Source: Alphaproteobacteria bacterium
GTDB lineage: Bacteria > Pseudomonadota > Alphaproteobacteria > JBFXJJ01
Direction: 5' to 3'
Length of the DNA: 51,638 nucleotides
Assembly: GCA_050175015.1 (NCBI GenBank)
Contig: JBFXJJ010000016.1
Location: forward strand, 1-51,638
How positions within the stretch are numbered: position 1 is the stretch's first letter; each line of letters begins with the position of its first letter. The notes beneath the pieces are model-generated. The model searched no databases. It was not told where the DNA came from and was given only the letters and a program-made list of their open reading frames with translations. Shown here one piece after another: positions 29,421 through 49,545 of the stretch. The position numbers were made by a program, and so were the translations under genes.

Positions 29421-30413
29421 ATGAAAGAAAAAGCTCCTAAAAAAGAAATTAAACTAATTGTTTCAGATATTGATAATACCATTGCTGATTATTTCGATGT
29501 TTGGGGCAAGGGCATAGCCAAAGCGGTTACAATGTTAGCCAAAAGCCGTGGTATCTCAGAAGATGCTATCTATGAGGATATAAAAACCAACACCCCAGGA
29601 GGAGATATTTTCCACCCTAATATTGATTACCTAATAAGAAATACAACAATTCTTCAGCCGAAAACTGAAAAAGAAAAAGCACGTTATGATAGAGATGATG
29701 CTAAGATTATGCACGAAGTTAATAAAATGCGTATTGCTGGAGATAAGGCTTATTCTGGCGTTATGGCAACAATTACCAAAGCTAAGGCTTCTGGTGCTAA
29801 GGTTGTGTTTTATACTGATGCTGCAATGTCTGTTGCAATCGGTCGTTTAGCTAATATGGGAATCCCTGTTGATATGATAGATGGTCTTTACGCGCGTAAA
29901 GATGATGCTCCTCGTAAAGCTCCTATTGGTGTTAGATCGAAAGTTACAAAATATCGCAAAGCTTTAGAAGCTAGAATTTCTGATAATATGTATGTTGGCG
30001 AAGGCTGGAAACCAAATCCAGACTTGTTAACAACCATTATGAAAAAAGCTGGCGTTGAGAATCCAAAAGAAGTCGTTATGGTTGGTGATAACGTAAAATC
30101 AGATGGCGGCAGTGGTATTGGTGCTGGTTGTGAATATGCTTGGGCTAAATACGGTGCAAGTATTTCTCAGGAAGCTCAAGATACTTATGCAAAACTCAAT
30201 ACTAAAAAAGGTTATGAACTTGGTGTAAAAGGTCATCTAAAACAAATGAATGATGGTAACCGCCCTACAGTAATCTTAGAAAAAAGTTTTGCTGATTTAA
30301 CAAAATACTATAAATTTGTTCCAGCTAATGATAAAGTTATCGATAACTCTAAAGAGAAAGCCAATGCAGACGTTGTAAACTCTGTGGTTGCTAAACTTAG
30401 AGAGGGTCGTTAA
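29421..30413 (+). CDS. HAD-superfamily hydrolase, paralog 1
   Basis: Motif I SDIDNT, II YTD, III KPNP, IV GDNVKSD. Confidence 0.9.
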   Translation: MKEKAPKKEIKLIVSDIDNTIADYFDVWGKGIAKAVTMLAKSRGISEDAIYEDIKTNTPGGDIFHPNIDYLIRNTTILQPKTEKEKARYDRDDAKIMHEVNKMRIAGDKAYSGVMATITKAKASGAKVVFYTDAAMSVAIGRLANMGIPVDMIDGLYARKDDAPRKAPIGVRSKVTKYRKALEARISDNMYVGEGWKPNPDLLTTIMKKAGVENPKEVVMVGDNVKSDGGSGIGAGCEYAWAKYGASISQEAQDTYAKLNTKKGYELGVKGHLKQMNDGNRPTVILEKSFADLTKYYKFVPANDKVIDNSKEKANADVVNSVVAKLREGR

Positions 30414-30436
30414 TCTTTAATTTAGAGGTGTTTAAA

Positions 30437-30799
30437 GTGAGCAAAGATAGTAAAAATTTAATCAGAGCTGTTGATTATTTGCCTACGGAAGAAGAAAAAA
30501 CAAAAAAACATGCTGAATTAGCAAAAAGTTCAGAACCATTATATGAAGAACTTATGCTTTCAGATGAGAATGAAGAAGTTCTTTTAAGAATTTTCGGAGA
30601 TATGCCAGATTATTCAGATGATAAAATTGACGCCCTTTGGGAAGAGATTTTTAATTCAGAGCCTAAAGAGGTTTATGAATATTGCTTATCAAAAGGTGTT
30701 GATGTTTTAGATGGTGAAGGTAATCCAGTATCTCCATGGCGTGACATCGCAGTTATGTTAAAGTCAATAGATAAGGGATATATATCTTTAGCAGAGTAG
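30437..30799 (+). CDS. Acidic hypothetical protein between HAD paralogs
   Basis: About 120 aa. The GTG at 30437 follows GAGG; the ORF track start is 30428. No recognisable domain. Confidence 0.75.
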   Translation: MSKDSKNLIRAVDYLPTEEEKTKKHAELAKSSEPLYEELMLSDENEEVLLRIFGDMPDYSDDKIDALWEEIFNSEPKEVYEYCLSKGVDVLDGEGNPVSPWRDIAVMLKSIDKGYISLAE

Positions 30800-46477: not shown

Positions 46478-46653
46478 TATAAGCCTGACTTAATCATTAA
46501 TTAAAGAATTGTTATTAACAAAAATACAAAAAAAGCTTGCAGTTTCTCTCAAAAGGAATTAATATTGCCAAAATAGACGGAAACTTTTGCTATTTTTTGC
46601 GATAAAAGCTTTAGTTTTACTCTTTGTAATAAAGAATATGAGGAAATTTGGTA

Positions 46654-49545
46654 ATGAAAACAGAGAATGCTCCCCAGACTAAATATCTAAAAGATTATAA
46701 AAGACCAGAATATCAAGTTAGTAATGTTGATTTAGAGTTTGATCTAGATCCTGAAACCACAAAAGTAAAGTCAACTCTAAAGATTAAAAGTGAGTATGAC
46801 CGTACAGGCGGTGTAAAACCTATGCATCTTGATGGTGATGAACTTGATTTTGTATCTGTAGCAATTAACGGTAGAAAACTTAATCCCGAAGAATATTTGG
46901 TCGATGAAAAGGGTTTAACCATTTTAAATCCTCCAGCTGAGTTTACTATGACGGTTGAAAATAATATTCACCCAGTTAAAAATACTAAACTTGAAGGTCT
47001 TTATATGGCAGGTGATGTATTCTGCACTCAATGTGAGCCAGAAGGTTTTCGCCGCATTACTTATTATCCAGACCGTCCAGATGTTTTGGCAAAATTCACG
47101 ACTCTGGTAAAAGGCGATAAAGATAAACTTCCAGTTTTAATGTCTAATGGTAATCCTGTAGAAAAAGGTGAACTCCCAGATGGTCGCCATTTTGCAAAGG
47201 TTGAAGATCCATTTCCAAAGCCATCTTACTTGTTTGCTCTTGTAGCTGGTGATTTAGATTCTGTTAAAGATACTTTTGTTACGAGATCAGGCAAAGAAGT
47301 TAAACTTGGTGTGTTTGTCGAAAAAGGCAAAGCTGACAAGGCAACATACGCATTAGATTCTTTAAAAAGAGTTCTGCAGCATGACGAATCAAAGTGGGGC
47401 TTAGAATATAAGCATGATGTTTTCAATGTTGTGGCTGTTTCTGCTTTTAACCAAGGTGCTATGGAAAATACCACCCTTAACATTTTTAATGATAAGTTGG
47501 TTTTAGCATCTCCTGATACTGCAACAGATGCAGATTATGGCAGAATTGAAGGTGTTATTGGTCACGAAGCACAGCACTATCACTCAGGAAACTTGGTAAC
47601 AGTTGAAAACTGGTTTAACTTAACCTTAAAAGAAGGTTTAACCGTGTTTAGAGACCATGAATTTTCTTCAGATATGCGCTCTAGACCTGTTCAAAGAATT
47701 CAAGATGTTAAAGATTTAAGAGCTGGACAGTTCCCTGAAGATGCTGGTCCTTTAGCTCACCCAATTAAACCTAAGTCTTATGTTGAAATGAACAACTTCT
47801 ATACTTCAACTATTTATGAAAAAGGTTGTGAAGTTATTCGTATGACCCAACAGCTTCTTGGTGAAGAAAATTTCAAAAAGGCTAAGTCTTTATATTTCCA
47901 AAGACATTATGGTCAGGCTGTTTCAACTGAAAATTGGCTCAAAGCTATGGAAGATGGCGGTAATATTGATTTAACCCAATTCCACCGCTGGTATGATCAG
48001 GCTGGTACCCCAAATGTTAGCGCTGAAGGCAAATATAATCCTGAGACTAAAACTTATGAACTTACATTAAAACAAAGTACAAAGCCAACTCCAGGACAAC
48101 CTACTAAAGAACCATTTATGATGCCGATTGAAGTTGGTTTGCTCGGTGCTGATGGTAAAGATATGGCTCTTAATCTTAAGGGACAAAAAGGTGAAGCTGA
48201 AACCTCAAAAGTTTTAGTTTTTAAAGATGGCGAGCAGAAATTTGTTTTTGAAAATGTTAATGAAGAACCTGTTCTTTCAATTAACAGAGGCTTTACATCA
48301 CCAATTAATTTAGATGTAAAATACTCTACTCAAGAAAAAGCTTTCTTAATGTCTCATGATTCTGACGCTTTTAACCGTTTTGAGATTGGTCAACAATATG
48401 CGGTTGATGTTATGAAGTCTATGATTAAAGAAATTCAAGCAGGTAAAGAACCAAAAGTTGATCCCGCATTTGTTGAAGCTTTTGGCAGTTACTTGAAAGA
48501 TCCTTCTTTAGAAAAAGCTTTTGTGGCTGAAGCAATGAGACTTCCTTCTGAAAACTATATGGCTCAGCAGTTAGACGTTGTTGACGTTGATGCAATCAGT
48601 AAGGCAAGAAGCGTATTAAATAAAGTTGTTGCGGAAACCTACAAAGAAGATTTTGCTAAACTTTATAAAGATAATCAAAGCGATAAGCCTTTCGAGCCAA
48701 CTGTAGAACAGGCTGGTGAAAGATCTGTTAAAAATTTAGCTCTTTCTTATCAAGCTAAACTTGAAACAGCTGAGACTAAAGCAACCGTTTTTGAAGCTTA
48801 TGCTGCTTCAAGCAATATGACAGATAGAATGGGTGCTCTTTCAACACTTGTTAATAGCGATAATCCTAAGAAACAAGATGCTTTAGACGATTTTTATGAT
48901 CGTTATAAAGAAGATCCGTTAGTTATTAATAAGTGGCTTACAGTTCAAGCTACGGCTGATTCTCCAGATGTTCTTAATAAAGTAAAAGAACTAACAGAAC
49001 ACGAAGCTTTTGATATTAAAAATCCAAATAAAGTTCGTTCTCTTGTTGGAGCATATACTAATAGCAATCCTAAATCTTTCCACGCTAAAGATGGTTCAGG
49101 CTACCAGTTCTTAGTTGATTTCGTTAAGAAATATGATGATGTTAACCCAATGACTGCGGCAAAATTAGTAAAACCTTTGGGCGATTGGAAGAAATTTGAT
49201 GAAGAACGTCAAGATCTTATGAAATCTGCTCTGAAAGACATTTTAGCAAAACCAAATCTTTCAAGAAACGTTTATGAAATTGCTTCTAAGTCTTTAGGAG
49301 AAGAAGACGAAAAAGATAAAGTTAAAAAAACTTTAGTTGAAAAAAAAGAAGTTCATAAAAAAGTAGCTTCTTTTGGTAAAGGACAAAATGTAACATCTTT
49401 TGTTTGCGGTTCTAAAGCCAGCGCTAAAACTAGAGTTCAAAACAATTTGTTAAAGGCTGTTAGATGTGAAGAAAGTAATGTAACTGTTGTACCGCCTTCA
49501 ATGCCAGCTTCTAATATCTTAAAATTAAAACAAAGAGATAGATAA
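46654..49545 (+). CDS. pepN: Aminopeptidase N (M1 family) with an 82-aa C-terminal extension
   Basis: TQCEPEGFRRIT, PFPKPSYLFALVAG, GAMEN, HEAQH...LKEG zinc motif, NFYT.TIYEKG, NPNKVRSL. Confidence 0.95.
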   Translation: MKTENAPQTKYLKDYKRPEYQVSNVDLEFDLDPETTKVKSTLKIKSEYDRTGGVKPMHLDGDELDFVSVAINGRKLNPEEYLVDEKGLTILNPPAEFTMTVENNIHPVKNTKLEGLYMAGDVFCTQCEPEGFRRITYYPDRPDVLAKFTTLVKGDKDKLPVLMSNGNPVEKGELPDGRHFAKVEDPFPKPSYLFALVAGDLDSVKDTFVTRSGKEVKLGVFVEKGKADKATYALDSLKRVLQHDESKWGLEYKHDVFNVVAVSAFNQGAMENTTLNIFNDKLVLASPDTATDADYGRIEGVIGHEAQHYHSGNLVTVENWFNLTLKEGLTVFRDHEFSSDMRSRPVQRIQDVKDLRAGQFPEDAGPLAHPIKPKSYVEMNNFYTSTIYEKGCEVIRMTQQLLGEENFKKAKSLYFQRHYGQAVSTENWLKAMEDGGNIDLTQFHRWYDQAGTPNVSAEGKYNPETKTYELTLKQSTKPTPGQPTKEPFMMPIEVGLLGADGKDMALNLKGQKGEAETSKVLVFKDGEQKFVFENVNEEPVLSINRGFTSPINLDVKYSTQEKAFLMSHDSDAFNRFEIGQQYAVDVMKSMIKEIQAGKEPKVDPAFVEAFGSYLKDPSLEKAFVAEAMRLPSENYMAQQLDVVDVDAISKARSVLNKVVAETYKEDFAKLYKDNQSDKPFEPTVEQAGERSVKNLALSYQAKLETAETKATVFEAYAASSNMTDRMGALSTLVNSDNPKKQDALDDFYDRYKEDPLVINKWLTVQATADSPDVLNKVKELTEHEAFDIKNPNKVRSLVGAYTNSNPKSFHAKDGSGYQFLVDFVKKYDDVNPMTAAKLVKPLGDWKKFDEERQDLMKSALKDILAKPNLSRNVYEIASKSLGEEDEKDKVKKTLVEKKEVHKKVASFGKGQNVTSFVCGSKASAKTRVQNNLLKAVRCEESNVTVVPPSMPASNILKLKQRDR

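Follow-up and report, generated by a model that had tools for sequence, protein, structure and literature searches.

The window analyzed here, an entire contig of 51.6 kb (JBFXJJ010000016.1, positions 1 to 51,638; assembly GCA_050175015.1) from an Alphaproteobacteria bacterium, encodes four enzymes that end in a short, basic tail closing on arginine: three HAD-type proteins (HAD1, HAD2, and HAD3) and an M1 aminopeptidase (PepN). The initial annotation of this DNA had remarked on the tail in these four and taken it for a secretion signal; all four do carry it, but the phenomenon was understated, for the tail marks a genome-wide class that we estimate at roughly 35 to 50 proteins, or about 2% of the proteome. 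We hold with considerable confidence that it is a selected address tag, appended to its carriers. That the tag acts in export, that a type IV secretion system (T4SS) reads it, and where the cargo is sent are what we infer from the evidence laid out below; the T4SS is the most likely reader, with chances that we judge to be evenly balanced.

By translation, the four C termini (Table 1) read exactly as first quoted, and searches with Pfam and NCBIfam profiles bear out the earlier description of their carriers as three HAD hydrolases and an M1 aminopeptidase. Among the 40 open reading frames (ORFs) kept on the contig, these are the only ones to end in Arg, and all four lack a hydrophobic core at the N terminus, in keeping with the earlier statements that no housekeeping protein here ends in this way and that the four are without signal peptides. 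The HAD cores are conserved (HAD2 shares 65% identity with HAD3 and 42% with HAD1) and their tails diverge, again as described. For PepN, the family model pepN_proteo (1163.7 bits, with a cut-off of 718.2) aligns over its positions 1 to 868 with residues 16 to 883 of 965; because the model finishes there, the last 82 residues are an appendage. In the AlphaFold model of HAD2 (mean predicted local distance difference test [pLDDT] score of 85.8), the core is confident, residues 306 to 326 fall below a pLDDT of 50, and a short helix is placed at residues 316 to 322.

The source genome (hereafter G000; 2.53 Mb, 35% G+C, 49 contigs, 99.4% complete) yields 2156 ORFs from a simple codon-usage ORF caller, and 140 of their products end in Arg, a large share of them with a similar ending to the eye. 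We divided the last 24 residues into five segments and scored the C termini of 2090 proteins by the residue composition of each segment, leaving the last residue itself unscored; Arg-ending proteins of odd-numbered contigs served to train the model for those of even-numbered contigs, and vice versa. Under this held-out scheme, 25 of 137 Arg-ending C termini score >4 and 33 of 137 score >2, versus 66 and 244, respectively, of 24274 internal windows that end in Arg (binomial p at a score of >4, 3e-16 and 6e-23 in the two halves) and versus 14 of 1953 C termini without a terminal Arg that score >4 (Fisher odds ratio 31, p 2e-21), several of which have an Arg set two or three residues back from the terminus. 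The enrichment amounts to ~65-fold over internal Arg-ending windows and ~25-fold over C termini that do not end in Arg, so that the genome-wide enrichment put forward as a check in the initial annotation is strong. The held-out scores define 33 strict carriers among the 2090 proteins, the four enzymes of the window included, and the full, non-held-out model places 48 of 2090 above a score of 2; counting weaker variants brings the number to ~45 to 50. Two other approaches, position-specific mixture models fitted to the last 16 residues and a two-block position-specific scoring matrix, were tried and rejected. Either they overfitted or what they captured became a generic C-terminal helix, and their held-out gain was weak (e.g., 2/63 and 3/74 at a threshold of 4); segment composition captures the motif better.

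The simplest account of such endings is that they are ordinary Lys-rich C termini in an AT-rich genome. C termini in G000 are indeed generally enriched in Lys, which is the last residue in 374 of 2156 proteins, and the weakness of the position-specific models fits this account as well. It is opposed by the held-out enrichment (p 1e-16 to 1e-23), by the association of the tail with a terminal Arg, and by orthologues in other genomes that have no tail; moreover, the pattern is kept in a related genome, G018, whose sampled DNA is 52% G+C, which excludes an artefact of composition. We consider chance to be next to impossible as an explanation.

Anatomy, carriers, and distribution of the tail

Numbering back from the stop codon, aliphatic residues account for 33 to 70% of the 33 strict tails over positions -13 to -7 and for 67 to 70% at -10 to -7, versus 33% in the proteome. 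At any position from -13 to -3, at most one of the 33 tails has an acidic residue, and aromatic residues are nearly absent there. Lys occupies position -5 in 17 of 33 tails; at position -2, small or polar residues make up 79%, with Gly or Ser in 20 of the 33; and position -1 is Arg in all 33, by selection. Over the last 15 residues, the mean net charge is +3.15 in tails versus +0.45 in all proteins. Only the last 14 to 20 residues are common to the carriers; the linkers upstream, rich in Lys, Gln, Pro, and Thr, differ among families and are predicted to be disordered. The tail is appended at the extreme C terminus and, as modeled, lies outside the enzyme fold. The tag would thus run from a flexible polar linker through about seven mostly aliphatic residues (Ala, Val, Ile, Leu, or Met), possibly a short helix, to Lys or Arg with small polar residues and a final Gly/Ser-Arg.

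A census of carriers in G000, for which Pfam was run on 52 candidates outside the window in addition to the window proteins, is dominated by enzymes of known families. Peptidases comprise three PepN (965, 943, and 925 amino acids [aa]), two M3 oligopeptidases, and one M24 Xaa-Pro aminopeptidase, together with DUF6782 putative metallopeptidases, of whose 14 matches in the genome eight end in Arg and two have variant endings (…RQKGK and …NKGRG). Five HAD phosphatases are included, three in the window, one on contig C8, and one on contig C2 that ends …KKSRGM, as are three enzymes of glycogen and sugar metabolism (an isoamylase [GlgX], a 4-alpha-glucanotransferase [MalQ], and an aldose epimerase), an adenosine deaminase, a metallo-beta-lactamase-fold protein, an alpha/beta hydrolase, and a NADAR protein. 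The remainder consists of repeat proteins (one ankyrin, one tetratricopeptide repeat [TPR], and four pentapeptide proteins) and ~15 proteins assigned to no family, several of them in tandem arrays. Two of the candidates, FliI and an outer-membrane efflux protein, look like false positives. Transmembrane-like segments are found in 0 of the 33 strict carriers and in 520 of 2057 other proteins (p 1e-4). Of the three strict carriers with a hydrophobic N terminus, at least two look like start-codon artefacts; the cargo looks soluble and cytoplasmic. GlgX and MalQ also occur without tails in the glycogen operon on contig 2 of G000, which makes the tailed versions extra paralogues. The same holds for a tailed PepN in G018 beside its tail-less copies, and the suggestion in the initial annotation that the enzymes were repurposed fits these cases.

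The tail was followed into 40 related genomes, all of the same class and from other families. Strong relatives of the HAD family occur among them only in G002 and G018, where their C termini carry the motif. Elsewhere, the family appears in records of uncultured Alphaproteobacteria (one genome per species) from human and Hadza gut, rumen, and horse faeces, Acetobacter sp. CAG:977 being one record that holds it. Of nine metagenomic HAD homologues (39 to 81% identity), eight have the terminal Arg; the exception ends …RGGM. At ≥34% identity there are 53 HAD loci, 51 of them with complete C termini; 41 of these 51 end in Arg, and the other 10 continue for one or two residues beyond an Arg. DUF6782 has 24 matches in G002 and 21 in G018, and 12 of the 13 distinct proteins read from these two genomes end in the motif Arg; four DUF6782 proteins read from G020 and G032 have no tail. 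PepN is elongated by 40 to 81 residues and tailed in three of three copies in G000, five of five in G002, and one of three in G018; the two remaining G018 copies end at the core, as does PepN in 11 other genomes, there with a conserved …SKSL(A/G/N). The PepN comparison leaves out one locus, from G040, that is flagged as unpublished, and nothing claimed here depends on it. Likewise, a long MalQ paralogue is tailed in four of four genomes (G018, G041, G042, and G045), and the six short MalQ paralogues of these genomes are all without a tail. The pattern is kept while the sequence drifts, which argues for selection on the pattern.

Type IV secretion genes and candidate readers

The initial annotation placed a VirD4 gene about 3 kb upstream of the HAD genes, and the VirD4/TraG-like coupling-protein gene of the window does end 3.1 kb before HAD1. 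The virB genes whose presence it made a condition of its proposal are also there: G000 encodes VirB4 (contig C9), three VirB6-like proteins (matches under the Pfam cut-off), and an operon with two VirB8, VirB9, a 1760-aa VirB10, and VirB11, in addition to two chromosomal paralogues of the coupling protein and a MobC-like one on a small contig. The T4SS is of a chromosomal VirB/VirD4 type and resembles the Rickettsiales vir system. Between virB9 and virB10 sits a gene for a 1563-aa beta-flower/RHS-repeat protein. A 978-aa ORF separates virB4 from a type IVb pilus-like cluster at a distance of 3.7 kb.

A tree of 17 coupling proteins resolves into two clades, A and B, each with 100/100 support. 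Type A, found in G000, G002, G018, G023, G031, G038, G041, G042, G043, and G045, is followed by the gene for a ~350-aa protein that starts MWDW. Type B, to which the protein of the window belongs, is found in G000, G018, and G041 to G045 and has upstream of it a ~450-aa ORF whose C terminus is basic (…KRQRQ…), in the window a pentapeptide-repeat protein, with which homology of the upstream ORF was checked in G038 only. Orthologues of the coupling proteins (41 to 47% identity) occur in eight of eight tail-positive genomes examined, and type B in seven of the eight. The idea that type B is exclusive to tail-positive genomes was dropped, there being a like pair in G038 (whose protein is not in the tree).

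The MWDW protein, encoded just 3′ of the type A coupling protein, has homologues at loci L088, L335 to L337, and L339. It has a tail-like end, …FEMIAQRSxxGR, in G018, G041 to G043, and G045, and four or five residues beyond the Arg in G000 and G023; it may serve as an adaptor or may itself be a conserved substrate.

Tails are missing from orthologues where a coupling protein was not found (e.g., PepN in G001, G004, G009, G010, G011, G020, G025, G033, and G034; DUF6782 in G020), the reverse of what the initial annotation had named as grounds for rejecting its proposal. In G020, both DUF6782 and PepN are present without tails, and the coupling-protein search gave no hit. To count tails independently of family, 255 to 400 kb from each of four genomes (about one-fifth to one-fourth of the genome) was scored with an averaged model trained on G000, in which Lys and Arg were merged; it replaced a strict rule written by hand, which was without power, recovering none of the 314 proteins of the positive control, G018, and only 13 in G000. 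Tail-like C termini number 6 of 314 sampled proteins in G018, which has a coupling protein, and 0 of 354 in G020. Within G000, carriers are overrepresented within 25 kb of a T4SS gene (8 of 33, versus 181 of 2043 other genes; odds ratio 3.3, p 0.008), a statistic in which the three tandem HADs are not mutually independent. A complex prediction of coupling-protein residues 95 to 790 with the last 47 residues of HAD2, run without controls, returned a score of 0.00, which is counted neither for nor against binding.

The same genome has a second private ending, …KSKSYG(F/Y)GMGM, with the variants …WGMGFGM and …MAMGLGM, distinct from the Arg tail. This Gly-x-Gly-Met ending is found on five MobA/VirD2 relaxase-like proteins, three of them confirmed by a Pfam scan that took in four of the five, and on a Toprim/DUF5710 primase-like protein, also scanned. 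Relaxases are classical substrates of conjugative T4SSs, and the ending is probably a substrate tag for the conjugative elements' own T4SS; the occurrence of a private relaxase ending in this genome is a parallel that we count in favor of reading the Arg tail as a T4SS tag.

In the mechanism that we propose, the Arg tail would mark soluble cytoplasmic proteins for export in one step, and the cargo would be handed to the chromosomal VirB/VirD4-type T4SS through one of the two coupling proteins, the type B protein of the window being the candidate reader. The cargo would be digestive for the most part (amino-, oligo-, and metallopeptidases, enzymes that trim glycogen and dextrin, phosphatases, and a nucleoside deaminase), with ankyrin, TPR, and pentapeptide repeat proteins besides, a combination that suggests delivery into or onto another cell and the release of nutrients. 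That this gut and rumen lineage of Alphaproteobacteria uses its chromosomal T4SS to inject a tagged digestive cocktail into a prey bacterium or a host protist is a possibility that we advance tentatively and with some doubt.

Several observations weigh against a T4SS as the reader or call for caution. The proposal of the initial annotation that the tailed enzymes are T4SS cargo stands as regards enrichment, virB genes, and tail-less orthologues elsewhere, and it is weakened by two genomes that have coupling-protein orthologues and no tails among their sampled proteins: G023, with type A (0 of 219), and G038, with type A and a pentapeptide/coupling-protein pair like that of the window (0 of 289). 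Neither coupling-protein type alone, therefore, predicts tails; within the sampled genomes, coupling proteins are necessary, not sufficient, for them. The consensus of the Agrobacterium signals is R-x7-R-x-R-x-R, which the 33 tails of G000 fail, Lys being dominant, Arg mainly last, and Arg periodicity lacking. In about one-fifth of HAD homologues, one or two residues follow the Arg, so that a free Arg at the C terminus is not an absolute requirement. Since the related genomes are kin, counts of co-occurrence are not independent. Finally, start sites from the ORF caller are unreliable; stop codons are reliable and define the tails, which makes the C termini independent of the choice of start.

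If the tail is an export signal, another machine could be its reader, be it a type I exporter (an ATP-binding cassette [ABC] protein, a membrane fusion protein [MFP], and TolC), the type IVb pilus-like apparatus by virB4, or an undescribed system. Signals of type I secretion systems (T1SSs) are likewise C-terminal and uncleaved, and G000 encodes an HlyD-type MFP (379 bits, with a TIGR01843 cut-off of 208.65) and TolC; the TcpQ/secretin/PilO/ATPase cluster adjoins virB4, and the failure of the coupling protein to predict tails in G023 and G038 would also suit a different reader. A T1SS is nonetheless disfavored: no HlyD-type MFP exceeds the cut-off in tail-positive G018 (100% complete; best score, 51 bits) or G002 (94 bits), the ABC component not having been searched, and the tails are rich in Lys and Arg, whereas T1SS signals are poor in Lys. 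Altogether, a reader other than the T4SS is unlikely, if a serious contender. The tail might also have no part in export and act as a basic degron for an AAA+ protease, in the manner of the basic C-terminal motifs recognized by ClpX, or as an amphipathic helix that binds membranes weakly; its short, basic, and flexible character would suit either role. Clp and Lon are universal, however, and the tail is confined to one lineage; it rides on linkers of 40 to 80 residues, is without large hydrophobic or aromatic residues, and is found on extra paralogues whose tail-less copies occupy housekeeping operons. Ankyrin, TPR, and pentapeptide proteins are also among the carriers, and such repeat proteins are typically ones that are injected. 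We find a role outside export rather improbable.

Cargo loading into a protein shell was weighed as well. G000 encodes a Linocin_M18 encapsulin (E 4e-75), and the peptides that load cargo into encapsulin nanocompartments are short C-terminal tags on flexible linkers, just as here. The encapsulin family (PF04454) was, however, found in only 2 of 41 genomes (G000 and G025), and neither G018 (100% complete) nor G002, both of them tail-positive, gave a match; the EncFtn-like operon partner of the G000 encapsulin ends …SSLGLGKL, which looks like a classical loading peptide and is unlike the Arg tail; and the ~40 carriers are spread over the genome and reach 965 residues. A loading peptide is accordingly a very improbable identity for the tail. 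The encapsulin gene itself, of family 1 and with the EncFtn-like cargo gene upstream, forms an ordinary iron-storage nanocompartment operon. Bacterial microcompartment (BMC) shells were rejected as readers of the tag, a search for BMC shell genes having found none.

HAD proteins and neighboring genes

The window HADs match PF00702, PF13419, and PF13242 and have the features of the HAD superfamily (motifs I to IV and a Rossmann-like fold with a cap domain), with the exception of motif I in HAD3, which aligns as D-V-A-N-T with the DxDxT of the family: Ala replaces the second catalytic Asp, and HAD3 may be inactive or work differently. Residues D13, N16, T17, K194, D220, and D225 are invariant across 14 aligned HAD sequences. 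The top Foldseek matches are HAD phosphatases of the NANP/HDHD4 type (E 8e-9, TM score 0.50 to 0.66), and a search of the HAD profile against the sequences of solved structures matched only in the motif III/IV region of generic HADs.

HAD1 represents a HAD subtype with a conserved small ORF downstream. Of 53 related loci, 24 have a homologue of this acidic ORF (42 to 54% identity by tblastn) on the 3′ side of the HAD gene, at a spacing of 210 to 260 bp in 22 of them, 82 bp in L163, and 4.2 kb in L170, and these homologues are more conserved than the HADs themselves. The ORF has no Pfam match, and a protein-atlas search returned no usable one; it could encode a chaperone, an inhibitor, or an immunity partner. 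Farther upstream, the stop codon of the pentapeptide-repeat gene overlaps the start codon of the coupling-protein gene, whose product carries a long acidic C-terminal region. Two adjacent paralogues between the HAD cluster and pepN have N termini that resemble signal peptides, Pro/Gly/Ser-rich middles, and a common C-terminal block, …QTQCNAC(H/N)AAI….

Table 1. Locations of the features discussed, in window coordinates or, where a contig (C) is named, in coordinates of the source genome G000
Feature	Location	Strand	Details
HAD-type phosphatase 1 (HAD1), 330 aa	29421..30413	+	Pfam PF00702, E 9e-14; held-out tail score 3.2; C terminus …VVNSVVAKLREGR (translation); tail …DVVNSVVAKLREGR encoded at ~30369-30410
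HAD-type phosphatase 2 (HAD2), 326 aa	30860..31840	+	Pfam; held-out tail score 8.8; C terminus …VNPIKLAMKNNGR (translation); tail …IVNPIKLAMKNNGR encoded at ~31796-31837
HAD-type paralogue 3 (HAD3), 322 aa	31978..32946	+	Pfam; held-out tail score 7.9; C terminus …LNAQVMNKLLAKQR (translation); tail …VLNAQVMNKLLAKQR encoded at ~32899-32943
Aminopeptidase N (PepN, M1), 965 aa	46648..49545	+	NCBIfam pepN_proteo; held-out tail score 6.0; C terminus …ASNILKLKQRDR (translation); extension at ~49297-49542, ending …PASNILKLKQRDR
Small acidic ORF, 123 aa	30428..30799	+	Conserved 3′ partner of the HAD1 subtype
Pentapeptide-repeat protein, 409 aa	22010..23239	+	PF00805, E 1e-33
VirD4/TraG-like type IV coupling protein, type B, 1013 aa	23239..26280	+	PF02534 (E 2e-35), PF12696, PF10412
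TolC	33740-35026		
Adjacent paralogues	43071-43748 and 43878-44312	-	
virB operon	C4:42429-56710	-	
MWDW-starting protein	C3:104750-105760	-	
Type IVb pilus-like cluster	C9:22606-30651	+	TcpQ, secretin, PilO, T2SSE ATPase, T2SSF
Gly-x-Gly-Met-ending proteins	C3:13588-15150, C10:1627-3192, C8:58921-60450, C2:79433-81220, C4:200006-201412, C47:319-2640		
Encapsulin operon	C3:115007-116162	-	Linocin_M18

Comparison with known systems

A search of the full-text literature (supplements excluded) found no paper on the motif, the lineage, DUF6782, or the T4SS effectors of uncultured gut Alphaproteobacteria. T4SS effectors are hard to predict, their C-terminal signals being diffuse; here, the candidate signal is sharp enough for cargo to be listed directly, and the resulting list is unusual in that it holds spare everyday catabolic enzymes and not exotic toxins. 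The tag would turn the reading of substrates by coupling proteins, and the lifestyle of an abundant uncultured gut lineage, into testable questions. Were the injection reading true, the whole effector set of each genome could be listed from its sequence, and these bacteria would be predators or parasites and not ordinary commensals; were the reader not a T4SS, an undescribed route of export would be indicated.

The VirB/VirD4 substrates VirF, VirE2, VirE3, and VirD5 of Agrobacterium carry arginine-rich translocation peptides at their C termini (Vergunst et al. 2005, as cited in PMC8525350). Like those signals, the tail is short, unstructured, net positive with an important Arg, and located at the extreme C terminus of unrelated soluble proteins, and a VirB/VirD4-type machine is encoded in the same genome. 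Unlike them, it is far more stereotyped (an aliphatic block, Lys, and a final Gly/Ser-Arg), rich in Lys and not in Arg, and present on ~2% of the proteome, its part in translocation being putative. The Bep effectors of Bartonella combine a BID domain with a positively charged tail (PMC8714903). The present case shares with them a positively charged C-terminal tail, a VirB/VirD4 system, and an alphaproteobacterial host; it differs in that no BID-like domain precedes the tail, and the linker is disordered and family specific. The XVIPCD of the X-Tfe effectors of Xanthomonadales is a folded domain of ~120 residues that is read by the all-alpha domain of VirD4. It resembles the tail as a common C-terminal element on diverse enzymes, whereas the tail spans ~14 to 20 residues and has no fold, and a cognate immunity gene is not evident, apart from the small ORF that accompanies the HAD1 subtype.

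Short C-terminal tags on flexible linkers and unrelated enzymes are also a feature of encapsulin loading, yet the loading peptides are of the Gly/Ser-Leu-x-Ile/Leu-Gly type, a motif other than that of the tail, which in addition does not co-occur with shell genes. As to lifestyle, Micavibrio aeruginosavorus is reported to be without a T4SS (PMC3189940). For the predator Vampirovibrio chlorellavorus, delivery of hydrolytic enzymes by a T4SS has been predicted, with no signal on the enzymes named (PMC4451040). Our proposal resembles that one in having a T4SS inject a suite of hydrolases to digest another cell; it differs in that Vampirovibrio belongs to the Melainabacteria and the present lineage to the Alphaproteobacteria, and in that the candidate enzyme set is singled out here by a common tag. 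Set beside these systems, the tail appears to be a new form of the basic C-terminal T4SS signal, one that may make the effector set of a bacterium, and perhaps its lifestyle, readable from its genome.

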